IMG/VR virus record: IMGVR_UViG_3300015175_000005
Location: 1 to 39,923 of that record
Length of the DNA: 39,923 nt
Reading direction: 5' to 3' (one strand)
Source of the DNA: a virus
The translations under genes and the position numbers were made by a program. Shown here one piece after another: positions 2,180 to 39,923 of the stretch (positions are counted from its first letter, which is position 1; every line of letters starts with the position of its first letter). Below the pieces are notes generated by a model. The model searched no databases and had not been told where the DNA came from. It saw only the letters and a program-made list of their open reading frames with translations.

Positions 2180-3742
2180 TTATCGTGAACCTGCATCATC
2201 GTCCGATGGAAGATCGACGGAGACCTTCACTTGACCATCGCTTTTTTCGATGGTTGCGGAGGTGACTTTCGTCTCGGATCCGAATGGATTGGTGTTCGTC
2301 GGCAGTGCCACGGTGCCTAGGACGGTTCCGCTTAGACGGATTACCAGGACGTCTGCCGATGGTTTCACAGTCACCCAGACATGCGATTGGTCCTCGAATT
2401 GGTCGAGGATCTCGTCAAGTCCGTCCACCGGCTCGATGCGTACTGTCCTGCCGATGGGGGTGAGCACCTTCTTGTGAGGTTTCGCATTTGAGAACATGAC
2501 GCTCTTCACGTTGGAGAATTGCTTTTTCGGGCTCGGCGTGACGGGTTTCGGCTTCCTTGGCTTCTCTGTCTTCGGAGACTCCATGCCTTGGCGGGTGAGC
2601 TCCATCGGGTCGTGTTCCTCCGGCATCTGCAGGCGTAGCTGCCATATGTGTCGATCCTTGTCCTTCACCCTGTCCGGGACATGGGCGAGCATCACGGCAC
2701 CCTCGGGAGGTACCTGACCACAGTGACGCTCCATCTGGTATTTGCTTATATATCCGATTTCCTCGCCGTCGAGAAACACCCAGTACGTGGGGTATCCTGC
2801 ATACTTGCCCTTCCGTATCCGGTCTTCCATGACATAGACCCAGACCCATGCGTCGTATCCGTATCTTTTCAGGATCCGCTGGTGATCCTCGTCTCCGGAG
2901 ATCTCCACGCCGCACTCTATGGTCTCGATCATGACGCCATCCGGCTTCGCGTTGACCGCGCTTGGCATCTCGCCGCCGAGATAAGCGCTCTTCATGAAGA
3001 AGGAGTCCTTGCGGCGCCTGTCGCGGAGCGCCCGCCGCTTCGATTCGTCCCTCTCGGTTTGCGTGAGCGTCCTCGGGGTGTACATGACCTCCAGCCGGCG
3101 CCAGCATTCGAGAGTCCACCGGGCGTCGGACAGGGCGCGATGCTCCTCGGTGACCTGCATGCCAAGCAGCCGCATGGTCTCCTGCAGGCTTGCCGATGGT
3201 GCGTTTGGGAACTTCGCCATTGCCAACGACATCGTATCGATGCAGGTCGTGTCAAGACAATCGATGCCGAGTCGTGACGCTTCCTTGTTCAACGCGGAAA
3301 TGTCATAGCTGATGTTATGGCCGATCAGTGTGAGGTTCGAGATGGCTGCGAGGAATTCGGGGATTACCTGTTCCGCGTTCGGCTGGGACAGCAAGGACTC
3401 TTCGGTGATTCCGGTCAAAAGCGTTGCCGACGCCGGCAGGTCGCATTCGGGGGAGATAAGTTGCTCCCATTCGCAGGTCGGCACGTTGTTCCTTATCAGG
3501 ATTGCGCCGATATCGATGACACGTGTCCCGGAAGGGGAACTTATCGTTTCCGTGTCGATGACGACGGCATCGGCGATGGCGGCGTTCATTCTGAACTCGG
3601 CGAACGAATCCAGACCGTCATCGCCCGCATGCGATTCTCCGGACAATCCACTTTCCACAGGTACGGACGATTGTCCCTTGTCCTTCTTCGATACGGCGTA
3701 GGCGATGGCCGCAACGGCAACGATGACTATGACCAGCGTCAT
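2180..3742 (-). CDS. Membrane-anchored DEDDh (DnaQ-like) 3'-5' exonuclease with an uncharacterised C-terminal half of about 290 aa
   Basis: N-terminal TM helix MTLVIVIVAVAAIAYAV followed by KKDK. ExoI VVIDTETIS (D63, E65), ExoII LIGHNISYDISAL, ExoIII HRALSDARW. Its start overlaps the stop of the upstream ImmA-like gene (ATGA). Confidence 0.85.
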   Translation of the reverse strand: MTLVIVIVAVAAIAYAVSKKDKGQSSVPVESGLSGESHAGDDGLDSFAEFRMNAAIADAVVIDTETISSPSGTRVIDIGAILIRNNVPTCEWEQLISPECDLPASATLLTGITEESLLSQPNAEQVIPEFLAAISNLTLIGHNISYDISALNKEASRLGIDCLDTTCIDTMSLAMAKFPNAPSASLQETMRLLGMQVTEEHRALSDARWTLECWRRLEVMYTPRTLTQTERDESKRRALRDRRRKDSFFMKSAYLGGEMPSAVNAKPDGVMIETIECGVEISGDEDHQRILKRYGYDAWVWVYVMEDRIRKGKYAGYPTYWVFLDGEEIGYISKYQMERHCGQVPPEGAVMLAHVPDRVKDKDRHIWQLRLQMPEEHDPMELTRQGMESPKTEKPRKPKPVTPSPKKQFSNVKSVMFSNAKPHKKVLTPIGRTVRIEPVDGLDEILDQFEDQSHVWVTVKPSADVLVIRLSGTVLGTVALPTNTNPFGSETKVTSATIEKSDGQVKVSVDLPSDDDAGSR

Positions 3743-4131
3743 TCCACTATCCTTTCTCCATAAGCCGTCGTGACACGAGAAGCCAACAGCGACTTGTAAT
3801 CCTCCACAACCTGCACCGTCACGCCAAGCTCACACGCGATGAGATAAGAGTCCCCGTCGTACAGTCGTTCGGCGGTCGCATATTCGACGGGGCCCACGAG
3901 CCATAACGCGGTCTCCTTGCGGGTGCGCTGTTCCGCTTTTGTTCCGATGATTCCGCATCCAGGGTCATGGTGTCTCGCATGCACGAGCTCATGGCAGAGC
4001 GTGCACATCTTCTGATGGTCAAGCAGTCGATTGTCAACGATGATGAGCCGCAACGTATCACAGTACAGTCCACACAACCCGCGACCCAGGCTGCGTTCCT
4101 CCACGCGCACGTCCATCGACTCCGCCTCCAT
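3739..4131 (-). CDS. ImmA/IrrE-family (COG2856-like) zinc metalloprotease
   Basis: 130-aa ORF with an HExxH motif (CHELVHARHHD) in the usual ImmA context. Its stop overlaps the start of the exonuclease gene. Confidence 0.8.
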   Translation of the reverse strand: MEAESMDVRVEERSLGRGLCGLYCDTLRLIIVDNRLLDHQKMCTLCHELVHARHHDPGCGIIGTKAEQRTRKETALWLVGPVEYATAERLYDGDSYLIACELGVTVQVVEDYKSLLASRVTTAYGERIVE

Positions 4132-4151
4132 CAGAAGCCCGTCATAACTGT

Positions 4152-4310
4152 CTATCGGCCCTCACCGCCGTTCATCTCGATTTCCTTATTCGGATCCCTG
4201 TTGGCGGCCACGTCATAGTCCTCGGGGTGCGCGGCGATACGGTCGATGAGATCATCGGTGATCTGGGATTCGCGCTCGCGGGCCTCGTAGACGCGGGCGG
4301 CTTTTAAGGT
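4152..4310 (-). pseudogene. 5'-truncated ORF remnant (no usable start codon) upstream of the ImmA-like gene
   Basis: Open minus-strand frame ...KAARVYEARERESQITDDLIDRIAAHPEDYDVAANRDPNKEIEMNGGEGR*, with its stop at 4152-4154. There is no ATG/GTG/TTG upstream of the GC/AT junction near 4300. The coding-like GC-rich part ends exactly at that junction. Confidence 0.35.
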
Positions 4311-4311
4311 A

Positions 4312-4347
4312 GAGTCCCGACATTCATTGAGCTGTACATCGGGACTC
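4312..4347 (-). terminator. Stem-loop immediately downstream of the nuclease gene
   Basis: GAGTCCCGA (4312-4320) and TCGGGACTC (4339-4347) form a 9-bp perfect stem with an 18-nt loop, with no strong U-tract. Possible attenuator or processing site. Confidence 0.4.
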
Positions 4348-4369
4348 GAACTATTTTCAAATGATGCTG

Positions 4370-5461
4370 TTATAGAAGGCGTCGCACCTCTTCGCGAATC
4401 CGCTCGGAATATGCGTAGATGCCATTAAGCGTATCGATGGGCATGCGCTCGCAGTTCTTGTTCTCGCCGAAAACACCGAGATATTTCTGCTTGGTGTTGA
4501 AGTAGAGGCGAGCAATCGGTTTTCGATTGTTGTCATCGAGGAAGATGGCGCAGTATTTCTTCGCGTCTCTCATGGTCACCCGTTCCGGATCCACATCGCT
4601 GCATGCGATGGCTTTGATGATTCGGTAACCTGCGATTTCCTCCTCGGTGGTGACGATTCCATCGTCCTCGTTGTCATCGGATTCGTTCTCGACGTTTGCT
4701 TCCTCGTCTGCGTAGTCCGGTTCGGCTGTGCCGGCCTTGATGTCATCGGCTCCGAGGGCTGTCTTGAGTCGGTCGTTGACCTGGTCGGAGAGGAATTGTT
4801 TAAGCGCCTTGCCGACCAATGGCCTGAATTTTTCCATGACGGAAGCATAGAAGGAACCATCATACACATGGCTGGCGAGCAGTTTTACAAATTCATCGGA
4901 CGGGCTCTTGAATTCCTCTCCAATGGCTCTCTTGAGTGCGCCCACGTATTTGAGCTCTTCGGCACTGCTGGCGATGGAATCAAGGTCGAATGCCGGCTTG
5001 GTCAGCTTCTGCAACGCCGGGATTATCGTCGGGTCGATATCCAATAGATCCAGCACTAGGAACGGCTTCGAATCCATGCGGTTCGGCTCATCGATGTCCA
5101 TGTAGAAATTCCATACCTGCCCGTTGGTCAGAACGCCGATGCGCGCGTTCGTGACGGCGAAGTAGCGGTACAGTTGACTTGCGTTCTCCAAGCTGAGCGG
5201 TACGCCGATCTTCTTGCATTCGATAAGAATCTGCACTTGATCGTCATGCACGAGCGCGTAATCGACTTTCTCGCCTTTTTTGACTCCAACGTCGGCGGTG
5301 AATTCCGGCACGACCTCGGTTGGATTGAATACGTCATAACCGAGTACTTGGCCGATGAACGGCATGATGAACGCGTTCTTCGTGGCTTCCTCTGTTTCGA
5401 TGCCCTCTTTGAGGTCGCGTACCTTCGCGGCGACTTGGTTAAGGCTCTCCTCGAACTCCAT
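4370..5461 (-). CDS. HsdR-N-terminal-type PD-(D/E)xK nuclease-fold protein
   Basis: 363 aa, with an AAGGGAG RBS. The N-terminus EEATKNAFIMPFIGQVLGYD...KVDYALVHDDQVQILIECKK gives a D-x13-E-x-K motif as in HSDR_N-type domains. There is an acidic linker and a C-terminal domain (TTEEEIAGYRIIKAI...). Only 15 nt downstream of the repressor stop. Low GC. Confidence 0.8.
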   Translation of the reverse strand: MEFEESLNQVAAKVRDLKEGIETEEATKNAFIMPFIGQVLGYDVFNPTEVVPEFTADVGVKKGEKVDYALVHDDQVQILIECKKIGVPLSLENASQLYRYFAVTNARIGVLTNGQVWNFYMDIDEPNRMDSKPFLVLDLLDIDPTIIPALQKLTKPAFDLDSIASSAEELKYVGALKRAIGEEFKSPSDEFVKLLASHVYDGSFYASVMEKFRPLVGKALKQFLSDQVNDRLKTALGADDIKAGTAEPDYADEEANVENESDDNEDDGIVTTEEEIAGYRIIKAIACSDVDPERVTMRDAKKYCAIFLDDNNRKPIARLYFNTKQKYLGVFGENKNCERMPIDTLNGIYAYSERIREEVRRLL

Positions 5462-16187: not shown

Positions 16188-16607
16188 ATGGAATGCCTTG
16201 AATGCGGCAAGGAATTCCGTCCCTCCGGACGCGGCAAGCCAGGCAAGTACTGCTCCGGAGCATGCAAGGCGAAAGCCTATCGACGCAGGAAGAAGAACGG
16301 CGAGGTCGCGGCCGTTGCGAAACCGAAGCGAGCGAAGACGGAGGGCCCTGCGAGGATCACGGGGCTTGACCGTCGCAGCTTCGAGCGGATGATGGACGGC
16401 TCCCATGAGGACACGCTCCGCGAAATCGTCGGCAGACTGCGCGAGGCCCTGCATGACCCGTCGACGCCGGCCAGCGCGTTGCCGTCGATCAGCAGCAAGC
16501 TCGCCGAATTCGACGAACGGATGCGCATGGCCGAGGAATCCGGCGGCCTGTTCGATGACGATGATGTGACGGAGGTTTCGGAGGATGTCGGAGCGTCGAT
16601 TGTCTGA
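16188..16607 (+). CDS. Putative terminase small subunit
   Basis: Called by position, directly upstream of and overlapping terL. N-terminal zinc ribbon CLECG..CSGAC, basic patch, acidic C-terminus. Confidence 0.6.
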   Translation: MECLECGKEFRPSGRGKPGKYCSGACKAKAYRRRKKNGEVAAVAKPKRAKTEGPARITGLDRRSFERMMDGSHEDTLREIVGRLREALHDPSTPASALPSISSKLAEFDERMRMAEESGGLFDDDDVTEVSEDVGASIV

Positions 16608-18018
16608 TATCGCCCAACGGCTCGTGCAGCCGAATGATATCGTCGGAAGCGACTTCACGATGATCGACCGCGCGGCCGTCAGGGCGGGAATCCATTTCGA
16701 CCTGTGGCAGAAGGGCTTCCTCTACCTGCTGTTCGGCAAGCGAGCCGACGGCAGGTACGCCTGCGGCTCCGGCGGCGCGGTACTGTCGTCCTGCCGCCAG
16801 ATCGGCAAGACGTTCACGGTCGGCAACGCGATGTTCATCCTGTGCGCCGGACGCGCCGGGACATTGGTCATCTGGACCGCGCACCACACGCGCACCTCCG
16901 ACGAGACGTTCGCCGACATGTGCGACCTGACACGCAACCCGAAGCTCGCCCGATACGTCGAGAACGTGCGTCGGGCGAACGGCCAGCAGGAGATTCGGTT
17001 CGCGAACGGCAGCCGCATCATGTTCGGTGCACGTGAGAACGGCTTCGGCCGTGGCTTGCACTCCGCGGACATCGAGGTGTTCGACGAGGCGCAGATCCTC
17101 ACGGTGAAGGCGTTGGACAATCTGATCCCGATCGTGAACACGAGCCCGAACCCGCTGGTCGTGTTCATGGGCAACCCGCCGAAGCCCGGCGACCAGTCCG
17201 AGGCGTTCAGCGAGAAGCGGAACCTCGCGCTCGGCGGCGACGCCGAGGGCATGCTGTACGTGGAGCTCGCCGCCGACCGCGACGCGAATCCTGATGACCG
17301 TGAGGCGTGGGCGAAGGCGAACCCGAGCTATCCGACGCGCACCAGCGAGCAGGCGATCATGCGAATGCGCAACCTGCTCGCCGAGGACTCGTTCAGACGC
17401 GAGGCCCTTGGCATCTGGGACGAGCAGACCGCGCAAAGGGCGATAGACCCGAAGCTGTGGAAGCGGTCGGAGACCACGATCGTGCCGGATGGAGGCGTCC
17501 CGAGTTTCGCACTGGACATGCCGCCGGATCGCGGCACTCTGGTCATCGGCAATGCCTTGAAGCTGCCCGACGGCACGGCCTTGATCCAGATGGCGGCCAT
17601 CGAGGACGCGCGCCGGAACGGCACCCAGTGGGCGGTCGAATGGCTGCGTGAACGGTGGCCGAAGACCGCCGCGGTCATGATCGACGCGCAGTCGCCGGCC
17701 ATGAGCCTGCTGCCCGAACTGCAGAAGGCGCACATCCGCGTGACCGTCACCTCGATGGCCGAGATGGGACGCGCCTACGGACGATTCCAGGACATGCTCA
17801 ACGACGGACAGCTGAAGCACCTGCCGGACGACGCGCAGCCGCAATTGGCCGCCGCCGTGCGCGGCGCGATAACCCGTAATCTCGGCGCCTCGGGCGCGCT
17901 GGCGTGGAACAAGCTCGGCGCCGACGTGGACATCAGCCCATTGGTCGCGTGCACGCTGGCCCTTTACGGCGCGTTCACATCGAAACGCATTCCAGGACGC
18001 AAACAGAGAGCTGGATGA
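16585..18018 (+). CDS. Terminase large subunit
   Basis: 477 aa with a Walker-A-like SCRQIGKTF, a downstream DIEVFDEAQ (Walker B-like) and a nuclease half. Position fits the packaging module. Confidence 0.92.
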   Translation: MSERRLSDIAQRLVQPNDIVGSDFTMIDRAAVRAGIHFDLWQKGFLYLLFGKRADGRYACGSGGAVLSSCRQIGKTFTVGNAMFILCAGRAGTLVIWTAHHTRTSDETFADMCDLTRNPKLARYVENVRRANGQQEIRFANGSRIMFGARENGFGRGLHSADIEVFDEAQILTVKALDNLIPIVNTSPNPLVVFMGNPPKPGDQSEAFSEKRNLALGGDAEGMLYVELAADRDANPDDREAWAKANPSYPTRTSEQAIMRMRNLLAEDSFRREALGIWDEQTAQRAIDPKLWKRSETTIVPDGGVPSFALDMPPDRGTLVIGNALKLPDGTALIQMAAIEDARRNGTQWAVEWLRERWPKTAAVMIDAQSPAMSLLPELQKAHIRVTVTSMAEMGRAYGRFQDMLNDGQLKHLPDDAQPQLAAAVRGAITRNLGASGALAWNKLGADVDISPLVACTLALYGAFTSKRIPGRKQRAG

Positions 18019-19472
18019 TAGTTATGGTTGAATTCTCCGCATTGGGGCCGATTCCCGGCATTCCCGACAGCGACATGGACACCGTCCAGCGCCTGTACCG
18101 GACATGGATCCGGAAATACGAGCGCAACGCGTTGAGGACGGAATACTACAACGCCCACGAACGTGTGAAGAACCTAGGCATCGCGGTGCCCGACAAGCTC
18201 GCCAGCCGGTTCCACGCATGCGTCGGCTGGCCGGCCAAGGCGGTGAAGACGCTCGCCGACCTGAGCGTCTTCGACGGGTTCACCTACCCGAACGGCGATG
18301 ATGTGCACGGCGTCGACAAGATCATGGACCTCAACCGCTTCGACCTGATAACGCCGGAGACCATCGTGAACGCGTACACTCATTCGTGCGCGTTCCTCAC
18401 CGTCTTCCAGGATCCCGACGACAGCGGGCGCGTGCGAGTGATCCCGCGACCCGCCACATGGTCGGCCGCGATCTGGGATTTCATGCGCAACCGCATCAAG
18501 GCCGCGCTGACCATCACCGACGTCGACGAGTACGGCAACGCCACCGACATGAACGTGTGGCTGCCGCACGTGGTCTACAGGTGCGACCGCGCCGCCGGCG
18601 TGTGGAAGGCCGTAGCCTGTCCGAACGACTGGCCGTATCCCACCGTGGTTCCCGTCTGCTACGACCCGCAGGCCGAACGCCCGTTCGGACGCTCCCGCAT
18701 CACACGCCCGCTGATGGCGCTGACCGACGCGGCCATCCGCACCATGCTCCGCATGGAGGTGGGCGCCGAGTTCTACGCGGCTCCGAGCCTGTGGTTCATC
18801 GGCCTGGACCCTGACGCTTTCGAGGACAAGTGGAGCTCGCTGGTAAACAGCATCAACTCCATCAGCCGTGACGTGAACGACGAGGTGCCGACCCTGCAGC
18901 AGGTGCAGCAGATGACCATGCAGCCGCATTCGGACATGCTGCGCACGATCGCCCTGATGGTGTCCAGCGAGACCAGCATCCCGGTCAACGACCTGGGCAT
19001 CACCATGGACAACCCGGCCAGCGCTGAAGCGATGATGGCCGCCGAACGCAAGCTGTCGCGCGAGGCCGACCGTCAGAACCATCTCTTCTCCTACGCGTTG
19101 GAGGAGGTCGTGCGCATGGTCGTATGCCTCCAAGAGCACATCGACCCTGAGAGCATGCCGGAATCATTGACGGGAATCCGCTGCCGGTGGAAGCCGACGC
19201 AGGAGATCAGCCTCGGCGCACGCGCCGACGCTTTCAGCAAGATCGCGAACGTGTCCGAAGCGTTCGCCCAGTCGGAGGCTAGCTGGCGGTACGCGGGCTT
19301 CGACCATGAAGACATCGCGGACATCATGGGCGCGATGCGCTCCCAGAACGCGCGCAGCGTGCTCGACAGACTCGTCGGAGGTGCCGGCAACGCCCAGCGG
19401 AAGGACTCCGAACCGCGGAAACCCGATGCCGCGGAACCGGGAAACGCCGGCAAGCCAGCGGATGGGGGCTGA
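18015..19472 (+). CDS. Portal protein (SPP1 gp6-like)
   Basis: ATG 18015 overlaps the terL stop (alternative ATG 18024). Size and position are typical for a portal. Confidence 0.9.
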   Translation: MIVMVEFSALGPIPGIPDSDMDTVQRLYRTWIRKYERNALRTEYYNAHERVKNLGIAVPDKLASRFHACVGWPAKAVKTLADLSVFDGFTYPNGDDVHGVDKIMDLNRFDLITPETIVNAYTHSCAFLTVFQDPDDSGRVRVIPRPATWSAAIWDFMRNRIKAALTITDVDEYGNATDMNVWLPHVVYRCDRAAGVWKAVACPNDWPYPTVVPVCYDPQAERPFGRSRITRPLMALTDAAIRTMLRMEVGAEFYAAPSLWFIGLDPDAFEDKWSSLVNSINSISRDVNDEVPTLQQVQQMTMQPHSDMLRTIALMVSSETSIPVNDLGITMDNPASAEAMMAAERKLSREADRQNHLFSYALEEVVRMVVCLQEHIDPESMPESLTGIRCRWKPTQEISLGARADAFSKIANVSEAFAQSEASWRYAGFDHEDIADIMGAMRSQNARSVLDRLVGGAGNAQRKDSEPRKPDAAEPGNAGKPADGG

Positions 19473-19633: not shown

Positions 19634-20905
19634 GTGATGGATGGCGGTGCGAACCGGACCCCGAATCGCAGGCAGATCGGCGAACTGCGGCAGGCGCAGT
19701 CTCAGGCGTCAGCCTTGGCTAAACGGGAGCTGGGCAGGGTCTGGAGCGAGATCGGCGACTGGGAGCCGGAACAGCAGCGCGACGCGCTGCTCGAACTGGT
19801 GCCAGCGATCATCGACAAATACGCCGACACATCCAGCGTCGCGGCCGCCGAATGGTACCAGCGCGTGCGCGACAAGTGGATCTCCGACGATTTCAAAGCA
19901 CGCACGCCGGTAAAGGCGAACGATGACATCAGCAAGCTGATCCGCGCGAACGCCGGCGTCCTGTTCGGCGACGGCGCGGACCCGGGGCGGATGCTCCGCT
20001 TCCTCAACGCCGTCGTGGACAAGGGCGTGAAGCAGGGAGGCCGCGACACTATCCGCTACAACGCGAAACGCGATCCGAAGAAACCGCGCTACGCGCGAGT
20101 CCCGTCCGGCGCTAAGACGTGCGCGTTCTGCGCGATGCTCGCGTCCCGCGGCTGGGTGTACGAATCAGCCGAGACAGCCGGCGCGATGAGCAAATACCAT
20201 CCTGACTGCGACTGCGAGATCGTACCCAGCTGGGACAAGGACAAGCCGAACGTCGAAGGCTACGACCCCGAAAAGCTCTATGAGGACTATGAGAAGGCTT
20301 ACAAGGCCGCGGGCGGCAATCCCACAATGGAAGACGTTCTCGCGGCAATGCGGAGCCAGCCGGGGAAGTACACGGATGGCAGGCTGGTGCCTGTGAAGGT
20401 TCCGAAGGATTGGAAGCAGCCGCACGCTCAGAACGAGGATCGTCTGCTTTCGATGAAGGGATTGGCGGATGTCACCGATGCGGAATGGTATCGGCGTCAG
20501 GAACGGGCCGGGGTTCCGCATTCGGTGGATACGCTTTACCCGCAGGAGATCGTGTTCCTCGAACGTTTCCGGAATCTCGGCAACCATGTCGAATGGATAC
20601 CAAGAGACAAGGAGAACGCAACGGCGACAAACGACTTCCGCTGGATTGAAATGAACGAATTGTGCGAATTGAAATCCATGGCGAAAGCAGATTTCGGCAA
20701 GATTGCAGACCGCATCACCAAGGCCGTTCGAAGCGCCAAGGAGAATCACGATGTCGTCAAGGACTGTTTCGTCATAGACCTCGGCCAGGCGAAGCGTAAG
20801 GACAAACTCGTGCACCAATTGGAGAAATACAACGACCGCGAATGGAAAATCCGCAGGCTTTTCATCTTCGACGGTGAAGGGTTCTCGGAAATCAAATTGA
20901 AATAA
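19634..20905 (+). CDS. MuF-like minor head protein fused to a C-terminal PD-(D/E)xK nuclease-toxin-like domain
   Basis: The actinophage MuF hallmark KTCAFCAMLASRGWVY...YHPDCDCEIVP is followed by a low-GC extension of about 165 aa containing FLERF...NDFRWIEMNELCELKS (E...D-x10-E-x-K). Confidence 0.88.
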   Translation: MMDGGANRTPNRRQIGELRQAQSQASALAKRELGRVWSEIGDWEPEQQRDALLELVPAIIDKYADTSSVAAAEWYQRVRDKWISDDFKARTPVKANDDISKLIRANAGVLFGDGADPGRMLRFLNAVVDKGVKQGGRDTIRYNAKRDPKKPRYARVPSGAKTCAFCAMLASRGWVYESAETAGAMSKYHPDCDCEIVPSWDKDKPNVEGYDPEKLYEDYEKAYKAAGGNPTMEDVLAAMRSQPGKYTDGRLVPVKVPKDWKQPHAQNEDRLLSMKGLADVTDAEWYRRQERAGVPHSVDTLYPQEIVFLERFRNLGNHVEWIPRDKENATATNDFRWIEMNELCELKSMAKADFGKIADRITKAVRSAKENHDVVKDCFVIDLGQAKRKDKLVHQLEKYNDREWKIRRLFIFDGEGFSEIKLK

Positions 20906-20991
20906 AACAACCGGGAGCACCCCTCCGCTCATTGCGTGTTATTTCAACGCCGCAGAGGACCCCCGGTCTTTCTATATCCTATCACGCTTTT

Positions 20992-21073
20992 GGTGGGTTG
21001 GCCCAGCGGCGACGGCAGGAGCCTGTAAATCTCCGACATCGACACATCGCGGGTTCGAGTCCCGCACCCACCA
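20992..21073 (+). tRNA. tRNA-Tyr (anticodon GTA), class II architecture
   Basis: Acceptor GGTGGGT/ACCCACC. Anticodon loop CTGTAAA (GTA at 21025-21027) with U33 and A37. 14-nt variable region. T-arm GCGGG-TTCGAGT-CCCGC. The layout parallels E. coli tRNA-Tyr. Caveats: C31:U39 mismatch, weak variable-arm pairing, no encoded CCA. Confidence 0.75.
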
Positions 21074-21079
21074 CTCGCA

Positions 21080-21101
21080 AGCCCCGGAACGGGGCTTTTT
21101 T
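21080..21101 (+). terminator. Rho-independent terminator after the tRNA
   Basis: AGCCCCG-GAA-CGGGGCT followed by TTTTTT. Confidence 0.7.
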
Positions 21102-21135
21102 AATGCCCTGGAACAGGGCGGAAGGAGCAGAGGCA

Positions 21136-21633
21136 ATGACCGACGCAGCCACCATCGACAACGCCCAACAGCCGCAGGGGGAGGGTTCGGATGGCGTCCA
21201 GTCCGCCGAACCGCCGGTGGATTGGAAGGCGAAGTACGAGGTCGCCATCAAGCATTCCCGCGAATGGGAGTCCCGCGCGAAGGCCAACAAGGACGCCGCC
21301 GACGAGCTCGACAGGCTCAAGGAAAGCCAATTGTCCGAAACGGAGAAGCTGACCCGCAGAGCCGAACGAGCCGAGAGGGAACTGTCCGCATTGAAGACCG
21401 CCAATCAGGTCAACGCCTGGAAGAACGCGGCGGCCGAACAGTACCACGTGCCCGCGTCGCTGCTGTCCGGCGCGACCGAGGACGAGATCAACGCGAACGC
21501 GAAGGCGTTGGCCGAATGGAAGAACCCGGAACGTTCCGGCGCTTCCGCGCTCGGCGACCCGTCGGGCCTGCCCCAGACACCACCGAAAAGCGCCGACGAC
21601 TGGATCCGCTCGGTCGCCCGGCGCAACAAATAA
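21136..21633 (+). CDS. Capsid scaffolding protein
   Basis: ATG 21136 after GGAAGGAG. The upstream part of the 20932 ORF covers the tRNA. Charged, coiled-coil-rich and immediately upstream of the major capsid gene. Confidence 0.85.
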   Translation: MTDAATIDNAQQPQGEGSDGVQSAEPPVDWKAKYEVAIKHSREWESRAKANKDAADELDRLKESQLSETEKLTRRAERAERELSALKTANQVNAWKNAAAEQYHVPASLLSGATEDEINANAKALAEWKNPERSGASALGDPSGLPQTPPKSADDWIRSVARRNK

Positions 21634-21655: not shown

Positions 21656-22600
21656 ATGGCTTCCATCGTCAATCAGATGATCGGCTCCACCGACCTCGGC
21701 GGCGGCCTCATCCCCACCGAGTACTCCACCCAGATCATCCAGGACATCCCCAAGCAGAGCGTCATGCTCTCCCGCGCACGCCGGATCACGATGAGCACCC
21801 GCACCCGCACCCAGCCGGTATTGGACTCCAAGCCCATCGCCTACTGGGTCGGCGGCGACACCGGACTGAAGCAGACCACGAAGATGGGCTGGAGCGGCCT
21901 GAACATCACCGCCGAGGAGCTCGCCGCGATCGTGCCGATCCCGGAAGCCGTCATCGACGACGCCGGCATCCCCGTCTGGGACGAGGTCATGCCGCGTCTG
22001 GTCTCGGCCATCGGCTACAAGCTCGACCAGGCATGCCTGTTCGGCACCGACAAGCCGTCCAGCTTCCCGAACGGCATCGTCCCGCAGGCCATCGCCGTGG
22101 GCAACAAGCTCACCCAGGGCGAGGACCTCGCCGCCGACGTGGCCACCATGGGCCAGAAGCTCGCCGAACAGGGCTACGCGATGAACGGCTTCGCCAGCAA
22201 GCCCGGCCTGAACTGGCAGCTCATCGGCCTGCGCTCCAGCAACGGCGCGCCGATCTACGTGCCGTCCCTCGCCGACGGCGCGCCGTCCACCCTGTACGGC
22301 TACCAGCTCAACGAGGTGAACAACGGCGCATGGGACACCACAAAGGCCGTGCTGCTCGGAGCCGACTGGACGAACTTCGTCATCGGCGTCCGCCAGGACA
22401 TCACCTTCAAGATGCTCGACCAGGCACCCATCACCGACGACGACGGCAAGGTCATCCTCAACCTCGCCCAGCAGGACTGCATCGCCATGCGCGTCGTGTT
22501 CCGCGCCGGCTTCCAGATCGCCAACCCGATCAACGACGTGCAGTCGGACAAGGCGAAGCGCTTCCCGGCGTTCGTCATCCAGCCCGCCACAGGCAGGTGA
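21656..22600 (+). CDS. Major capsid protein (HK97-fold type)
   Basis: 314 aa with a GGAAGGAGAAG RBS. Position after the scaffold and typical composition. Confidence 0.9.
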   Translation: MASIVNQMIGSTDLGGGLIPTEYSTQIIQDIPKQSVMLSRARRITMSTRTRTQPVLDSKPIAYWVGGDTGLKQTTKMGWSGLNITAEELAAIVPIPEAVIDDAGIPVWDEVMPRLVSAIGYKLDQACLFGTDKPSSFPNGIVPQAIAVGNKLTQGEDLAADVATMGQKLAEQGYAMNGFASKPGLNWQLIGLRSSNGAPIYVPSLADGAPSTLYGYQLNEVNNGAWDTTKAVLLGADWTNFVIGVRQDITFKMLDQAPITDDDGKVILNLAQQDCIAMRVVFRAGFQIANPINDVQSDKAKRFPAFVIQPATGR

Positions 22601-31740: not shown

Positions 31741-32958
31741 ATGGCTTGGCGCGCGTACATCGTCGACACCATCAGCGGCCAGATCATGTGTCCGATCGAT
31801 TTGCCGAGTTTCAGCTGGTCGGTCAGCGTGGCCGACTCCAGTTTCTCGACCACGAAATCCAAGGGCGTCGGCAAAGACGAGGCGAGCGGTCTGAAACTCC
31901 CGTGGACGGCGATACCCGCAGCCATGCCGGGGGAGCGCTGCCGTCTGCTCGCCCCCGACCGGCGTAGCATCGCGCTCTGCTGGACGAGTCCATTGGATTC
32001 CGAGGATGCGATAGGCACGCCGATACTCTGCGGGCTCATCGGCCAGAGGAAGGACGGTCCACTCGACACGGACTTCAGCCTGACCAGCATTTACGGCCTG
32101 CTCGGCGATAGATACTTGTTGCGTGAGGGAGTCTACGGAGCCGCCAATGGCAGCACCAGCACGGATGTCATCAACTTCAGCGATCTATCCCTCCGCGCCA
32201 TCGCGGCCGAGACGGGCTGGCTGTGCACCAACGCCAAGCCGGGCGGCGGGCTACCCATCGACTGGCACTACCGAGGAGAGCAAGGCTCGCACCAACGCGA
32301 ATACGATTCATGGGACATCCAGAATCTGAAATGCTCGGACGTGTGGGACAAAATCGCCAACGTGGAAAACGGGCCCGACCTGCAACTACGGCCGAAACTG
32401 TCCGGCGACACCATCCGCTTCGACTTCGTCGCAGGTTCGGACGCGGATCCGAACATCGCGCAGAACACGATCATCGAACTATCTTCCTCGCCATACGGCG
32501 GGACTCTGGAAAACATCACAATAGACCATCTCGGAGCCGTGAACCGTGTCTATGCGAGCGGCTCAGGCACGGACAGGGCGCAATTATGCCATCTGTCCGA
32601 AGACCTGAGTCTTGTGAATGGAAGTCACGAGCCATTCCCGCTGCGGGAGATGTCCCACAGCGACACCGACGCCGCCGACGCAGGTCTGCTCCGCCAGCAC
32701 GCGGACGGCATATTGGCCGCCAACCGGCGTCCGCTCATGCAGATCAAGGGCGAACTCCACGCCAACGACGTGAGCGTCGACGGCACGCCATTGCATCCGC
32801 TCGGCAGCTTCTGGCCCGGCGAGACGATGCGGTTGGACATCCAAGGCTTCCCAACTCTCGCGGACGGCGTGTACGAATGCCGGCTCATGCAGATGAGCGG
32901 CGACCAGACGGACAAAGTGAGTCTGATATTCGACGCCATGGATGATCCCATGGCCTGA
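31741..32958 (+). CDS. Minor tail / tail-tip (Tal-like) protein
   Basis: 405 aa with an AAGGAAGGA RBS. Lies between the Dit-like gene and the fibre gene. Confidence 0.75.
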   Translation: MAWRAYIVDTISGQIMCPIDLPSFSWSVSVADSSFSTTKSKGVGKDEASGLKLPWTAIPAAMPGERCRLLAPDRRSIALCWTSPLDSEDAIGTPILCGLIGQRKDGPLDTDFSLTSIYGLLGDRYLLREGVYGAANGSTSTDVINFSDLSLRAIAAETGWLCTNAKPGGGLPIDWHYRGEQGSHQREYDSWDIQNLKCSDVWDKIANVENGPDLQLRPKLSGDTIRFDFVAGSDADPNIAQNTIIELSSSPYGGTLENITIDHLGAVNRVYASGSGTDRAQLCHLSEDLSLVNGSHEPFPLREMSHSDTDAADAGLLRQHADGILAANRRPLMQIKGELHANDVSVDGTPLHPLGSFWPGETMRLDIQGFPTLADGVYECRLMQMSGDQTDKVSLIFDAMDDPMA

Positions 32959-32974
32959 CATTTTGGAGGTGGCT

Positions 32975-35900
32975 ATGTCCTCTCACGTGGAATTGAATCC
33001 AGACGATTCGACGCTCGGCCTGAGCCTGGGCATGAAGGCCATGCGCCTCGCCCTGACCCAGAAGACCCACAAGATGGGCACCGTGCGCATCCCCGGCACG
33101 GGCGGCACGGACGTCATCATCGGCGCCGGCGCGTCCGATGGCGTCAACCGCGTGGACAAGGACGGCGTCCAACTGCCGTTGGTGGACACGAGCGGCATCG
33201 ACAAGGCCGCCAAGGACGCGCAGCAGAAGGCGGACGCCGCGGCTGCGAAGGCGGACGAGGCGATCGCCAAGGGCGAGCAGATTAGGCAGGACGCGCAGGC
33301 GGGCATCGACGACGCGCGCAAGCAGGCGCAGGCGGTCGAAGCCAAGGCCGACAAGGTCCGAACCGATCTCACCCAGCAGGTTCAAAACGTTAAGTCCGAA
33401 ATGGATTTGGCAGTTGAAGCTGCCCAGACATCCGCCAATAAGGCCCAGTCCGCAGCAGATGCAGCCCGGAAGGCGGCTGACAAAGCCAATGCGTCTACAG
33501 TAGATCTTGATAAATCAGTCCAAGCAGTCGATGCGAAGGCCATTGCGGCGAAACAGGCCGCAGCCGAGGCCCAGTCCAAGGCCGAGAACGTCGCATCGGA
33601 TCTCGATTCCGCGAATGCGGTCATCGAACAGCACACCACGGAACTCGGAACCCTTACGACGAAGGTCTCCAATGCCGGCACCAAATCCGACAGCGCCCTG
33701 AGTGTCTCCACGGAGGCCAAGCAGACTGCGACCGAGGCATCGACTACGGCATCTTCCGCATACAAGGATTCGCAGACCGCTCTTACCCAGAGCACCACTG
33801 CGACACAAACGGCAACCACCGCAAAGACCACTGCCGAATCGGCAAGCAAGACCGCAAGCGATTCGCTTAAGCAGTCTTCCGCAGCAGTGCAGACGGCCAA
33901 TCAGATCAGTACGACTCTGAAGACCGAGTATCAGACCAAGGCGGATGCCGATAAGATCTATGCGACCCAGTCGAGTCTGAAACAGACTTCGGATTCCATC
34001 ACGGCTTCCGTATCAAAGACATATGCCACGAAGGACGCATTGTCCGCCCTCCAGAACGTCGCAGATAATGCCATCGAATCCTGGCGAGGAACCGGTGTCC
34101 CGACACTGACGAACAAGCCGGCTTCGGACTGGACCACAAACGCCGATAAGAAGAAGCACTCCGGTGATCTTTATTATGACAAATCAACCGGTAAGGCATA
34201 TCGTTTCGGTTCTGATGGCGTGACATATACTTGGGAGCTGAATCAGGATACTGATGTCACCAAGGCATTGGCGGATGCATCCAAGGCACAGACTTCCGCG
34301 AATAATGCCCAGGCGTCCGCAACGGCAGCGAACACTGCTGCCGGTAAGGCCCAATCGACGGCAAATACCGCAGTCAGCAATGCGGCCACCGCGAAGAACG
34401 CAGCCGATGCCGCGCAATCCAGTGCGAACAAGGCTCAGAGTGATGTCGATAAGCTGAAGATCGATATTCCCGAGACCTATGCGACCAAGAGCTCTCTGAC
34501 CCAGACCGCCGAATCCATCACCGCAAATGTAGAATCCGTTAGGACAACCGCAAACAGTGCCGTGACGGCCGCATCGAAGGCACAGCAGACCGCCGATGGT
34601 ATTTCCGCAAATCTGTCAAAGAATTATCAGACGAAATCCCAGGCAGATACGATATATGCAACCAAGGCGAGTCTGAAGGCGACTTCCGAGAGTATTTCCG
34701 CCGAAGTCACCAAAGCGCAGGGAACCGCCGATGGTGCCGTGACAGCTGCATCGAAGGCACAGCAGACCGCTGATGCCGTCACTCTGAATCTGTCAAAGAA
34801 TTACCAGACGAAAGCACAGAACGATGCCGTGTACGCAACCCAGACAAGTCTGAAGGCGACTTCGGATTCGCTCAGCGCGAGTATTACGGCAAATGCGAGG
34901 ACCGCACAAAGCGCTGTTGACAAGGCGACAAGTCTCGAAGCGAACCTTAATGGTTTTAAGACTACTGTCGCTGAAACATATCAGACTAAATCTGGAATGT
35001 CTGCTTACGCAACCAACAGTTCCCTTACCCAGACTGCGAATTCCATTAAAGCTCAGGTCACTGAAGTCTCCAAGACCGCAAACGGTGCAATGTCCAAAGC
35101 CACTACAGTGGAACAGACTGCCAATGGCCTTAGCAGTAAGATCACCGAACAGGGTAAGACACTCAATGCGACCGTCAAGACCGCGAACGAAGCAAAGAGC
35201 ACCGCTGACAGCAATAAGACCACTATCAGTCAGGTAAGCACTACAGCCAGTAATGCGTTGTCTAAAGCCTCCACGGTGGAACAGAATCTCAACGGTTTCA
35301 AGACCAGCGTAAGTCAGACGTATGGACGCGGTTCGAATCTCTGGGTCAATCCGACGTTTGATGCTGATAAGCCCCAGATCACCTCTCGGGTGAATAACGT
35401 AACTGCGCCGAATGGGAGCGGAGTAAATCTGCTCGCAAGTCGTGACCATTACAATTCCGCCACCAGTTTTCCTGTGGTTCCGGGCCATACGTATGTGGTG
35501 ACCGCTCATGTCAAGCGATTAGAGGGAGATCTACCGCTGACGGCCGGTATCTGGTACACCGCACAGACCGGCGGAACTTGCTGGGACTCGATAACGTCAT
35601 GCGAATCAACGTCAAGCCTGAGTGATGGATGGATGGCCGCGACATGGCGTTTCACCTGTCCGGATGGAAAATCCAGAGGATGCGTGTTGTTCCATCTTGA
35701 GCAGTGGAAATCTTCGACACAGTGGTATGTGGCGAACGTCGTATGCGTCGATGTGACTGGATTGCAGCCGTCCGGCGACTACGCGACGAACAGCAGCCTG
35801 TCGCAGACGGCGAACAGCATCAAGGCGCAGGTGTCGGAGGTCGCGAAGACCGCTTCCGGGGCGATGAACAAGGCGTCCTCGGTGGAGCAGACCGCTTCGG

Positions 35901-37513
35901 GTCTTTCGACCAAGATCACCGAACAGGCCAAGACCCTCGATGCGACTGTCAAGACCGCGAACGAGGCAAAGAGCACTGCCGACTCGAACAAGCGGACCAT
36001 CTCACAGGTCGCATCCACCGCTGACGGCGCTGTAAGCCGCGTAAGCTCTCTGGAACAGAATCTCAACGGGTTCAAGACCAGCGTGGCGAAGACCTACCAG
36101 ACCAAGGGGGACTATCCGACCAAAGCCGAGGTGCAGTCCAGGATCGACCAGTCGGCCTCCTCGATCAAATCGACGGTCGGCCAGACCTACACGACTCTCG
36201 ATGCGACCGAGGCGTTGAGGAAGAGCGCGACCCGTATGTTCACGCTGTACGGCGCGTCGGGCAGTCCGAAATGGGTCAAGCTCGGCTATCTCACCAGCAA
36301 CGGCGACTCGTCGAGCGTCCTCCTGCACGTCTACTCCGGCGACGGCTACAACGGCGCTGCCCGCCAGAACGCGGAGTTCGAGATCTTCGTCAAGGACGGC
36401 TGGCAGTCGTCCGCGTCCGCGTCGGGCGCGTTCGGCGTGAGCGTGAACCGTATCCGCAACGCGGATGACGTGAAGGTCAAGGTGCTCGCGTTCGACGATC
36501 GGAGTTGCGACATCTGGGCGTACCTGCCGTGGGCCTGGTGGAACGGGCACTACACGCTGCAGGGCGACTACAAGGCGTGGCAGGACGGCCCAAACTGCGG
36601 CGGCGTGAATGTACAGGACAATGAGCCCACGAACAGCGTCGCGCAGGACCTCGCGTACGACACGCTCAGCACGCGCAGCTACGTCGACCAGACCAGCAAG
36701 TCGGTGGCCTTGGGCGTGGTGCAGAATTACCGTGGCGCGGACGGTTCGGGACTGGCCACGAAAAGCGACATCACCGCGAGCGAGAGGAGCATCACCAGCA
36801 CCGTCGCAGGCACTTACGCCACCAAGAGCGGCGTCACGCAGGAGATCTCGTCGAAGATCACCCAGAACAACAACAGCCTGGACGTGAAGTTCGCAACCAA
36901 GACCGAGACCAAGACCGCGCAGGCCACGGCGAACACAGCCAAGTCCGACGCTTCCGACGCCCAATCGCGCGTCGGTGTTCTGGAGGACTGCATCAGGCTC
37001 ACATCCGAAGGCGTGCGCGCCGGCCACCAGAAAAACGGGGTGTTCAACGGCATGAGCGCCCTCGTGAACACCGACGGAAGTTTCGACCTGCTGGACAAGG
37101 ACGGCAACCTGCTCACGCGCATCGACCGGCACAGTTTGCAGGTGGCCGGTGACGATGGGGCCGGTTCAGGGCATTTGATCCTGTCGCAGGACGGTCTCGA
37201 CATCACCGTGCAGCCTACGGCGAACAGGGCGGTCGCCTATCATATCCGGCTCGGCGCGGAAGGCATCAGCATCACCGCGCCTGACGGGACGCATGTCGAA
37301 TGCTCGGCCCGGACCGGTCTGGATCTGGAGACGGTGAGATACGGCAAACTGGCCATCGGCCCTGGCGGCTTGCAGTTCACGAACGACCAGGGATGGGGCT
37401 TGGCCCTCTCCGCCGTCGGCTGGAGCCTGAAATGGGCGGGGAACCACCGGCTCGCCACCGGTCCGACGGCGGGCAAGCTCTACATCGACGGACACGAGAT
37501 CGTCACCAAATAA
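32975..37513 (+). CDS. Tail fibre / receptor-binding protein (1512 aa), repeat-rich
   Basis: ATG 32975 after GGAGGTGG. Long Ala/Thr/Ser/Gln-rich periodic coiled-coil-like repeats. An internal beta-rich CBM-like insert (about 35330-35760) and a globular C-terminal region. Confidence 0.9.
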   Translation: MSSHVELNPDDSTLGLSLGMKAMRLALTQKTHKMGTVRIPGTGGTDVIIGAGASDGVNRVDKDGVQLPLVDTSGIDKAAKDAQQKADAAAAKADEAIAKGEQIRQDAQAGIDDARKQAQAVEAKADKVRTDLTQQVQNVKSEMDLAVEAAQTSANKAQSAADAARKAADKANASTVDLDKSVQAVDAKAIAAKQAAAEAQSKAENVASDLDSANAVIEQHTTELGTLTTKVSNAGTKSDSALSVSTEAKQTATEASTTASSAYKDSQTALTQSTTATQTATTAKTTAESASKTASDSLKQSSAAVQTANQISTTLKTEYQTKADADKIYATQSSLKQTSDSITASVSKTYATKDALSALQNVADNAIESWRGTGVPTLTNKPASDWTTNADKKKHSGDLYYDKSTGKAYRFGSDGVTYTWELNQDTDVTKALADASKAQTSANNAQASATAANTAAGKAQSTANTAVSNAATAKNAADAAQSSANKAQSDVDKLKIDIPETYATKSSLTQTAESITANVESVRTTANSAVTAASKAQQTADGISANLSKNYQTKSQADTIYATKASLKATSESISAEVTKAQGTADGAVTAASKAQQTADAVTLNLSKNYQTKAQNDAVYATQTSLKATSDSLSASITANARTAQSAVDKATSLEANLNGFKTTVAETYQTKSGMSAYATNSSLTQTANSIKAQVTEVSKTANGAMSKATTVEQTANGLSSKITEQGKTLNATVKTANEAKSTADSNKTTISQVSTTASNALSKASTVEQNLNGFKTSVSQTYGRGSNLWVNPTFDADKPQITSRVNNVTAPNGSGVNLLASRDHYNSATSFPVVPGHTYVVTAHVKRLEGDLPLTAGIWYTAQTGGTCWDSITSCESTSSLSDGWMAATWRFTCPDGKSRGCVLFHLEQWKSSTQWYVANVVCVDVTGLQPSGDYATNSSLSQTANSIKAQVSEVAKTASGAMNKASSVEQTASGLSTKITEQAKTLDATVKTANEAKSTADSNKRTISQVASTADGAVSRVSSLEQNLNGFKTSVAKTYQTKGDYPTKAEVQSRIDQSASSIKSTVGQTYTTLDATEALRKSATRMFTLYGASGSPKWVKLGYLTSNGDSSSVLLHVYSGDGYNGAARQNAEFEIFVKDGWQSSASASGAFGVSVNRIRNADDVKVKVLAFDDRSCDIWAYLPWAWWNGHYTLQGDYKAWQDGPNCGGVNVQDNEPTNSVAQDLAYDTLSTRSYVDQTSKSVALGVVQNYRGADGSGLATKSDITASERSITSTVAGTYATKSGVTQEISSKITQNNNSLDVKFATKTETKTAQATANTAKSDASDAQSRVGVLEDCIRLTSEGVRAGHQKNGVFNGMSALVNTDGSFDLLDKDGNLLTRIDRHSLQVAGDDGAGSGHLILSQDGLDITVQPTANRAVAYHIRLGAEGISITAPDGTHVECSARTGLDLETVRYGKLAIGPGGLQFTNDQGWGLALSAVGWSLKWAGNHRLATGPTAGKLYIDGHEIVTK
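35021..35323 (+). repeat. Diverged 303-nt in-frame duplication, copy 1 (low GC)
   Basis: Encodes SLTQTANSIKAQVTEVSKTANGAMSKATTVEQTANGLSSKITEQGKTLNATVKTANEAKSTADSNKTTISQV...NLNGFKTSVSQTY. Confidence 0.85.
35795..36097 (+). repeat. Diverged 303-nt in-frame duplication, copy 2 (high GC)
   Basis: Encodes SLSQTANSIKAQVSEVAKTASGAMNKASSVEQTASGLSTKITEQAKTLDATVKTANEAKSTADSNKRTISQV...NLNGFKTSVAKTY. Confidence 0.85.
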
Positions 37514-38247: not shown

Positions 38248-38302
38248 CCATTCCAAGGCCATCTCCTCGGAGGTGGCCTCTGCCATATCTAAGGAGGCAA
38301 TC

Positions 38303-39898: not shown

Positions 39899-39923
39899 CG
39901 TCAGGGTATAAATTCCGTTGATA
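39899..39923. repeat. Direct terminal repeat copy 2 (att core or circular-assembly overlap)
   Basis: Identical to 1-25. The repeat may extend beyond the window edges. Confidence 0.95.

Follow-up and report, generated by a model that had tools for sequence, protein, structure and literature searches.

Polymorphic toxins are defined by pairs of a toxin and an immunity protein. The MuF toxins, found in prophages of Actinobacteria and Firmicutes, consist of a head-morphogenesis protein whose gene neighbours that of the portal and which has a C-terminal toxin-type domain of at least 100 amino acids, with an immunity gene downstream (PMC5576092; PMC3482391); a Bifidobacterium bifidum MuF protein with an EndoU domain has been cited among them (Jamet et al. 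2017, PMC5576092). The CdiA-CT toxin of Burkholderia pseudomallei 1026b (PDB 4G6V) is a Mg-dependent PD-(D/E)xK tRNase acting on the acceptor stem of tRNA-Ala, and its sister enzyme E479 cleaves the T-loop of tRNA-Arg (PMC9086364). Phage tRNA genes, for their part, have been linked to counter-defence: the tRNA-Tyr of phage T5 offsets retron Eco7 PtuAB, which targets tRNA-Tyr (PMC11555353), T5 tRNA-Lys offsets PARIS (PMC11464382), and anticodon-loop variants of phage tRNAs have been described as an escape from tRNA cleavage (PMC10264068). Here we describe a locus that touches on all of these systems. It lies in the 39,923-nucleotide IMG/VR virus record IMGVR_UViG_3300015175_000005, the whole of which was analyzed and is called the window below. 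Its VG15/MuF-type head-protein gene ends in a nuclease-like module and is followed by a hairpin, a tRNA-Tyr gene and a terminator. Judging by sequence comparison, the 3' end of the head-protein gene and the next ~200 nucleotides are one mobile cassette composed of these four elements. In the literature we found no toxin paired with a tRNA gene instead of an immunity protein, nor such a cassette in bifidobacterial prophages; only two separate notions were found there, phage tRNAs acting in counter-defence and tRNAs resisting cleavage as an evolutionary escape. The parts of the locus are as follows.

19634-20905, plus strand: VG15/MuF-type minor head protein gene with a C-terminal nuclease-like module (423 amino acids; open reading frame (ORF) listing)
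19664-20299, plus strand: VG15 (PF25310) scaffold domain, amino acids 11-222 (Pfam, E 1e-65)
20300-20419, plus strand: variable linker, amino acids 223-262 (homologue alignment; breakpoint against locus L050 at nucleotide 20419)
20420-20905, plus strand: predicted PD-(D/E)xK-fold C-terminal module, amino acids 263-423 plus the stop codon (AlphaFold2, alignment, hhalign and Foldseek)
20546-20548, 20633-20635, 20666-20668 and 20672-20674: candidate catalytic residues E305, D334, E345 and K347, with E310/R311 as further candidates
20910-20968: conserved three-tier nested hairpin of 59 nucleotides, 5 nucleotides after the stop codon
20992-21074, plus strand: class II tRNA-Tyr gene (anticodon GUA) with a long variable arm (ARAGORN; Rfam tRNA, 47.9 bits)
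21079-21103, plus strand: intrinsic terminator, AAGCCCCGGAACGGGGCTT (21079-21097) followed by TTTTTT (terminator scan)

The N-terminal part of the protein is a VG15 domain that includes a CxxC...HxxCxC signature, with the CAFCAMLASRG...HPDCDCEIVP motif conserved in alignments, in agreement with an earlier note on this DNA, made from the letters and a list of ORFs, which had called the protein MuF-like up to about residue 250. PHROG 13257 spans amino acids 51-422, nearly the whole protein, and the module-bearing architecture therefore recurs in phages; the PHROGs label is 'minor head protein / head maturation protease'. The flexible linker that follows the scaffold domain differs in length among relatives and is often rich in Gly, Ser and Pro. 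Guanine-plus-cytosine (GC) content falls from ~0.64-0.66 to 0.49-0.56 across 20400-20950, so that the drop pointed out in the note is real but moderate. In frame, GC at third and second codon positions (GC3 and GC2) is 0.82 and 0.46 for amino acids 1-262 and 0.67 and 0.33 for amino acids 263-423, the GC3 of neighbouring structural genes being 0.84-0.95. Part of the drop comes from amino acid composition, because GC2 falls as well in a module rich in Lys, Glu, Asn, Ile and Phe. A smaller GC3 dip is also found in about two-thirds of the other lineages.

With the VG15 N-terminal domain alone, 80 viral loci were retrieved. Their VG15 proteins range from ~245 amino acids, the bare scaffold, to 560 amino acids, and about half have no extension at all; the extension is thus not universal and the module appears to be dispensable for head assembly. 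The long VG15 proteins end in Gln_amidase (PF15644), CdiA_C (PF18451), EndoU_bacteria (PF14436) or ADPrib_exo_Tox (PF03496) domains, and a small ORF of 79-152 amino acids, starting -31 to +18 nucleotides from the stop codon, lies after almost all of these toxin types. In one locus (L061) the scaffold is 86% identical to that of the window but carries a C-terminal glutamine deamidase (Gln_amidase) instead. With four toxin domains on VG15 and a small ORF behind nearly all of them, the view that MuF-type scaffolds carry toxins with a gene in the immunity position immediately downstream holds for this scaffold also. Downstream of the module, no credible protein ORF is present in 20906-21135. The earlier note had reported that this interval lacks an ORF and contains only a tRNA and a terminator; the absent ORF, the tRNA and the terminator are all confirmed, but not the word 'only', since the 59-nucleotide hairpin at 20910-20968 had been missed. 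It had also left three options for an antidote (elsewhere, absent or non-proteinaceous), among which the comparative data favour a non-protein partner, probably made up of the hairpin and the tRNA-Tyr, the latter having been taken as incidental. We consider it very probable that the module is a nuclease-type effector module of the MuF polymorphic-toxin kind.

The E...D-x10-E-x-K arrangement first noticed in the module corresponds to E305/E310, D334, E345 and K347, which, together with ~20 other positions, are invariant or nearly so among 31 homologues. No Pfam or NCBIfam family matched the C-terminal ~160 amino acids, even at E<=1. An AlphaFold2 model of the module, built on 23 trimmed homologues, is confident (predicted local distance difference test 91.3, predicted template modelling score 0.86). 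In it the first core helix bears E305/E310, the second strand begins with D334, and the third strand contains E345-x-K347. These are the helix and strands expected for catalytic residues of a restriction-endonuclease fold, and the initial guess of such a fold would therefore appear to be right. A module start at about amino acid 263 is indicated by the recombination breakpoint at nucleotide 20419 and by the model, which is ordered from about amino acid 282; it lies close to the start at nucleotide 20390 that had been claimed.

The suspected resemblance to CdiA-CT tRNases appears to reflect remote homology. With hhalign, the module profile aligned at 94% probability (E 1.3e-7), catalytic motif against catalytic motif, to the domain that ends the L087 VG15 protein; this domain in turn gives a full-length match to Pfam CdiA_C (E 2e-20) and matches PDB 4G6V chain A (E 1.3e-3). 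The alignment to a second CdiA_C domain, from L071, was weak (14% probability), and the module is therefore best viewed as a sister family of CdiA_C and not as a member. A Foldseek search of predicted viral structures (BFVD) returned members of the family, including Orf4 of Gordonia phage GMA4, as well as a 'CDI toxin-like protein' (E 7e-4, query template modelling score (TMq) 0.55), where CDI stands for contact-dependent growth inhibition, and a 'tRNA nuclease CdiA C-terminal domain-containing protein' (probability 0.97, TMq 0.52). The weak top matches in the PDB were PD-(D/E)xK enzymes, namely EcoO109I, influenza PA-N, Card1 and NucS. No CdiA-CT was found among the top 50 PDB Foldseek matches, and searches of PDB sequences with the module and with its profile gave chance matches only, without a CdiA-CT. 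On these profile and fold comparisons we assign the module to the CdiA_C (CdiA-CT Bp1026b/E479) lineage, as a remotely homologous, predicted PD-(D/E)xK domain. At 50% identity the family falls into 409 clusters; its members always form the very C-terminus of a protein or stand alone, and they are found on VG15, Phage_Mu_F (PF04233) and Phage_min_cap2 (PF06152) scaffolds. Two Phage_Mu_F proteins with the module (P0093 and P0130) also hold intein splicing domains inside the MuF domain.

MuF/gp7-type proteins contact DNA, and a restriction endonuclease ranks first among the fold matches in the PDB. It is thus conceivable that the module is a non-toxic head domain, structural or DNA-handling, which binds the DNA end or its own hairpin during packaging or ejection and uses its catalytic-looking residues for binding or for phage-internal nicking; the orientation-independent core of the hairpin, described below, would fit recognition as double-stranded DNA or as a cruciform. 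Such a role is nevertheless very improbable in our view. The module behaves like a cassette, with three scaffold families, stand-alone and orphan copies, variable linkers and a compositional break, and bona fide toxin domains replace it on near-identical scaffolds, about half of the VG15 proteins doing without any extension. In GMA4, moreover, ~5 kb lie between the element and the beginning of the genome as deposited.

The module sequence was used to retrieve module-bearing loci (L numbers) from IMG/VR, from metagenomes and from GTDB genomes. When the region was compared by Megablast with 50,697 phage genomes, no match was obtained; among deposited phages a module homologue (35% identity) occurs in Gordonia phage GMA4 alone, which has the same gene order, with a tRNA-Tyr directly downstream of the module. 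A same-strand tRNA-Tyr(GUA) starts 84-105 nucleotides past the module stop codon in nearly all loci with enough downstream sequence and is present in 15 of the 19 module lineages. The tRNA-linked loci span Bifidobacterium, Pseudoscardovia, Gordonia, Mycobacterium and Rhodococcus, with module identity down to 34%. In the control set the tRNA was found in all eight loci with a confident module match, and the 71 VG15 loci that lack the module, which represent 38-41 lineages, had no tRNA of any kind. Counted by lineage, 15 of 19 with the module against none without it, the Fisher p is ~2e-10.

Comparison with two other types of locus delimits the exchanged segment. The module is 88% (L008 type) or 77% (L032 type) identical on scaffolds that are only 54% identical, and nucleotide similarity to these loci begins within the VG15 gene and stops exactly at the tRNA 3' end (20084/20086 to 21075/21074 of the window); the portal, scaffold and capsid genes of these phages cannot be aligned with those of the window. 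With L050 the similarity covers 20419-20966, that is the module and the hairpin, and the tRNA-Tyr of L050 is of another lineage. These breakpoints indicate that module, hairpin and tRNA travel together yet can re-assort.

Re-assortment of module and tRNA lineages, as in L050, and the existence of some lineages without the tRNA would also suit a looser arrangement, in which the module is an effector with another target (DNA or another RNA) and the hairpin, tRNA-Tyr and terminator are a hitch-hiking moron at a recombination hot spot, the tRNA supplying tRNA-Tyr against depleting host defences or boosting translation. Phage tRNAs including tRNA-Tyr are documented counter-defences (PMC11555353, PMC10264068), and the tRNA has its own terminator and, in Bifidobacterium-type cassettes, an upstream TA(T/A/G)CAC box. 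The 71 module-less related phages, however, carry no tRNA of any kind at this position despite similar hosts, and the link persists, its spacing fixed, in 15 lineages whose hosts belong to several genera. A protein ORF accompanies the other toxin domains of this scaffold, so that under the looser arrangement the module would have no immunity, and the anticodon loops are canonical, unlike those of described escape variants. We regard the moron explanation as unlikely, and there is a strong case that the RNA genes are functionally tied to the module.

The tRNA-Tyr is the sole tRNA gene of the prophage and its CCA end is not encoded; the terminator closes the cassette just upstream of the ribosome-binding site of the scaffold gene. 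Cassette tRNAs from nine Bifidobacterium-type lineages form a perfect cloverleaf in which 10 of 20 pairs show compensatory changes, and they are therefore likely to be functional genes under selection as tRNAs. Of the 14 lineage tRNAs extracted, 13 have the canonical anticodon loop CUGUAAA and that of L189 has CUGUAAC; the cassette tRNAs show no anticodon-loop escape changes, and their unusual changes are at T-loop position 55 and in the D-arm. In L035, L040 and L050, position 55, normally U/pseudouridine, is occupied by C, and in L187 and L189 by G, the T-loop being TCCGAA or TGC(A/G)AA, not TTCGAA (L035 4557-4640, L040 4557-4639, L050 4547-4631, L187 3549-3631, L189 3572-3655). The tRNAs of L040 and L054 differ at position 55 alone. 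It is at this site of the T-loop that the related CdiA-CT E479 cuts. The tRNA of the window has a normal T-loop and a C31.U39 mismatch. Corynebacteriales-type cassette tRNAs have a GUA anticodon, A8 and a 5-bp D-stem with a 4-nucleotide loop, and are scored best by Rfam as tRNA-Sec (48-53 bits). They are located as follows.

L047 (GMA4), 4561-4642: Corynebacteriales-type cassette tRNA
L222, 3522-3601: Corynebacteriales-type cassette tRNA
L233, 3579-3658: Corynebacteriales-type cassette tRNA
L221, 3530-3609: Corynebacteriales-type cassette tRNA
L056, 4553-4632: Corynebacteriales-type cassette tRNA

Those of L056 and L221 were missed by ARAGORN, seen by eye and confirmed by Rfam. A search for the host Bifidobacterium tRNA-Tyr with a D-arm/anticodon pattern gave alphaproteobacterial tRNAs and one known prophage copy. 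The TA(T/A/G)CAC box stands 4-6 nucleotides upstream of the tRNA 5' end and is not a canonical -10 hexamer; it was seen in the window at 20969-20991 and in the spacers of L008, L032, L035, L040, L050 and L187. One locus (L158) has an extra tRNA-Arg 452 nucleotides past the module stop codon, downstream of the tRNA-Tyr. Codon compensation as the role of the tRNA was rejected: there is but one anticodon for Tyr, and the distribution of the tRNA follows the module and not the phage group.

Between the stop codon and the tRNA lies the hairpin, with an outer stem P1 (ACCGGGAG/CCCCCGGT), a stem P2 (CCTCCGC/GCAGAGG), an inner stem P3 (GCGT/ACGC) and a 9-nucleotide loop (GTTATTTCA). Covariation was computed on nine Bifidobacterium-type sequences, in all of which P2 has one C.A mismatch. 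Standard pairs make up 88% of the pair cells, compared with 30-48% in slid controls; double compensatory changes affect 10 of 19 pairs, and none of 500 shuffles reached the observed values. All 15 lineages aligned share the loop core TTATT without change, and the longer TTATTTC is nearly invariant (TTATTCC in L035). A covariance model gave a single match in the window (20910-20968, 86.6 bits), that is one copy per genome; it found no hairpin in the 71 module-less VG15 loci and placed the hairpin on the minus strand in L044 and L056. No Rfam family matches it. In the window the folding energy is -20.4 kcal/mol on the plus strand (z -2.1) and -32.4 kcal/mol on the minus strand (z -4.2), and which strand folds better varies by lineage. 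The hairpin of L222, a Gordonia metagenome-assembled genome (MAG), at ~3433-3505 is nearly the reverse complement of that of L044 at 4470-4540, in the same module-to-tRNA context. The hairpin thus appears to invert as a unit with its sequence kept, possibly through its own P1 inverted repeat.

An 18-mer pattern of the hairpin core run over GTDB genomes gave at least 120 matches, against ~280 expected by chance; those listed are all regarded as chance matches, none of them having flank similarity or a module. A T-box, a promoter and an anticodon-loop or T-loop mimic were considered as roles and rejected, given the lack of an Rfam match, the misfit of the hexamers and the orientation flips. Stop-codon readthrough into the hairpin was likewise rejected, the extension entering the tRNA gene and stopping in the anticodon loop. 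The Bifidobacterium-type hairpin would be a good terminator for antisense transcription, because a U-rich tract comes after it on the minus strand, and it coincides with a recombination boundary. Its orientation-independent, sequence-conserved core is the least explained feature of the cassette; at the minimum it is a strong stem-loop ending the toxin ORF.

The constancy of the hairpin raises the question whether it, and not the tRNA, is the true partner, bound or cut by the module in its own transcript or DNA, with the tRNA-Tyr as an accessory passenger. It might act as a type III-like RNA antitoxin, allow a head protein of low copy number to regulate its own synthesis, or take part in processing where mRNA and pre-tRNA meet. 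All intact phage loci read have the hairpin, those of the four tRNA-less lineages included; it begins 0-20 nucleotides past the stop codon and, as noted, accompanies the module as a single copy, absent from module-less loci. Conservation of its P2/P3/loop core greatly exceeds that of the protein encoded beside it, the cores of L042, L044 (reverse complement) and L222 being nearly identical next to modules that are only ~40-50% identical, and an orphan module remnant (L051) still has two copies. Both orientations are found in otherwise syntenic loci, however, so that a single-strand RNA sequence cannot be the conserved feature, and the better-folding strand is not constant. There are no ToxI-like tandem repeats, the inner hairpin of L039, L041 and L187 is different, and a hairpin partner gives no account of why the linked tRNA is always Tyr. 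We therefore think it improbable that the hairpin alone is the partner.

Our preferred proposal, put forward tentatively and as somewhat short of an even chance, is that the capsid delivers the protein, that it is an isoacceptor-specific tRNase directed against tRNA-Tyr, and that the cassette tRNA provides replacement or immunity. By analogy with MuF/SPP1 gp7-type proteins, the head protein would be packaged in the capsid and enter the cell with the DNA. Inside the cell the module would act as an isoacceptor-specific tRNase, like its characterized relatives. Its target would be tRNA-Tyr, to judge from the isotype of the linked gene, and loss of this tRNA would stop translation because tyrosine is decoded by a single anticodon. 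The cassette tRNA-Tyr would be made in the producing cell, possibly also from the prophage. As a poorly cleaved replacement or decoy it would restore or protect tyrosine decoding, filling the role that the immunity protein has for the other toxin domains on the scaffold. The hairpin would at least insulate or terminate the unit and mark the recombination boundary; it may also be bound by a protein, perhaps the module itself, as suggested by a core that is both sequence-conserved and orientation-independent. In its strongest form, which we hold with more doubt, the cassette would be the first polymorphic-toxin unit with an RNA gene as immunity, an injected tRNase of a new CdiA_C-related family with tRNA-Tyr as resistant replacement or decoy. 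The hairpin would then perhaps serve as a nuclease-binding element, and the producer and lysogens would be protected.

Several observations weigh against this proposal. On the protein side, the module fails the Pfam CdiA_C (PF18451) profile outright, Foldseek against the PDB gave nothing below E 1e-3 (best E 0.04, TMq 0.3), and PD-(D/E)xK domains are more often DNases. The anticodon loop and T-loop of the window's tRNA-Tyr are canonical, with no mark of cleavage resistance, and inversion of the hairpin between close relatives (L222 and L044) is hard to square with a strand-specific RNA role. Furthermore, four intact lineages without the tRNA (L041, L042, L043 and L046/L055) keep the catalytic residues and the hairpin, so that the tRNA is not indispensable, and the association of module and RNA could partly reflect common descent of the cassette instead of functional need. 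In L042, L043 and L046/L055, the last from Tsukamurella, the hairpin is followed straight by scaffold or capsid genes. In L041, a low-GC lineage (4583-4831), an 82-amino-acid CxxC...CxxC zinc-ribbon-like ORF occupies the tRNA position directly after a variant hairpin, and may be a protein immunity or substitute partner. The orphan remnant L051 (1343-2106; Bifidobacteriaceae MAG, JAQXZM010000084.1) is chromosomal and frameshifted, without scaffold or tRNA; with its two hairpin copies (1862-1921 and 2049-2106) it resembles an orphan toxin cassette. L058/L225 is a truncated fragment.

The window comprises an entire temperate-phage genome and is exactly one Bifidobacterium prophage, delimited by a 25-bp direct repeat CGTCAGGGTATAAATTCCGTTGATA, the attachment (att) core, at both ends (1-25 and 39899-39923). 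Its other landmark genes are listed here.

208-1428: tyrosine integrase
16585-18018: terminase, late operon
17904-19472: portal gene, late operon
~21136-21633: scaffold-like gene, late operon
21656-22600: capsid gene, late operon
38033-39651: holin and amidase

The late operon has the order terminase, portal, VG15 head-protein gene, scaffold and capsid, the head-protein ORF (19634-20905) sitting between portal and scaffold gene. The att core also occurs at 3794-3818 of L219, a 311-kb Bifidobacterium-type metagenomic contig used as chromosomal context, where the left repeat is the junction with chromosomal DNA. A prophage with a tyrosine integrase and a tRNA gene invites comparison with tRNA-dependent lysogeny, documented in actinobacteriophages (PMC10865867); the tRNA-Tyr of the phage would in this case make up for the loss of a host tRNA-Tyr gene through integration. 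The 25-bp att core is, however, not tRNA-like, the insertion point in L219 adjoins a histidine-phosphatase gene and not a tRNA, and no tRNA gene is present in the 4 kb of host flank. In addition, ~20 kb separate the tRNA from the integrase, and its occurrence goes with the nuclease-like module and not with the integration module. This explanation is extremely improbable and is excluded for the window, whose att site is not a tRNA.

Elsewhere in the window, a lysogeny-side island of lower GC (0.50-0.59) on the minus strand at 2180-5461 encodes a 520-amino-acid DEDDh/RNase_T-type exonuclease fusion and a 363-amino-acid protein with a type I restriction HSDR_N domain, which could be prophage defence or moron genes. 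A second GC dip (0.53-0.55) at 34001-36000, inside the ORF 32942-37513 of a 1523-amino-acid tail protein, suggests an exchanged receptor-binding segment. One metagenomic Bifidobacterium contig (OATQ01000009.1, 257 kb) holds two module-bearing prophages ~42 kb apart (L147 and L150).

There is a realistic chance that the cassette reveals a principle of RNA-based immunity. If the tRNA proposal is true, a family of 409 clusters would add RNA-based self-protection to polymorphic toxins, a phage tRNA would be part of an offensive module and not a passive counter-defence, and the isotype of the linked tRNA would reveal the toxin's substrate directly from sequence. The cassettes are common in gut Bifidobacterium prophages (B. 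adolescentis and relatives) and may shape strain competition in a health-relevant commensal. Even if the tRNA model fails, the invertible conserved hairpin and the aberrant cassette tRNAs, with their non-U55 T-loops and tRNA-Sec-like D-arm, need explanation.

Compared with MuF toxins, the window protein is likewise encoded next to the portal, carries a 161-amino-acid C-terminal module and shares its scaffold type with alternative toxin domains. It differs in that the module is followed by a hairpin and tRNA-Tyr with no immunity protein gene, that the domain is in no curated toxin family, and that the N-terminal domain is Pfam VG15 and not Phage_Mu_F, although elsewhere the module is also found on Phage_Mu_F and Phage_min_cap2. 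With the CdiA-CT 1026b/E479 toxins (PF18451; 4G6V, 5J4A) the module shares a predicted PD-(D/E)xK core, an E, D, (D/E)xK site and a C-terminal position on a delivery scaffold. Characterized CdiA-CT members of this group are isoacceptor-specific tRNases, and the relatives together with the linked tRNA suggest the same activity for the module. Unlike them, the module is below Pfam detection, is not found among solved structures by sequence and would be delivered by a phage capsid, not by a CdiB/CdiA filament; CDI toxins are neutralised by a CdiI protein, and the module locus has no such gene. As in the type III toxin-antitoxin system ToxIN, a nuclease toxin would have a cis-encoded structured RNA and not a protein as antidote. 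ToxI, however, is a tandem repeat array upstream of toxN that is processed by the toxin, whereas the cassette has a single downstream hairpin without repeats, in either orientation, beside a bona fide tRNA, and ToxN is not a PD-(D/E)xK enzyme. With counter-defence phage tRNAs, finally, the cassette has in common a single-isotype tRNA proposed to sustain translation, its canonical anticodon loops setting it apart from the escape variants. In counter-defence the nuclease belongs to the host and is unlinked, whereas here a nuclease-like domain and a tRNA stand side by side and move together.

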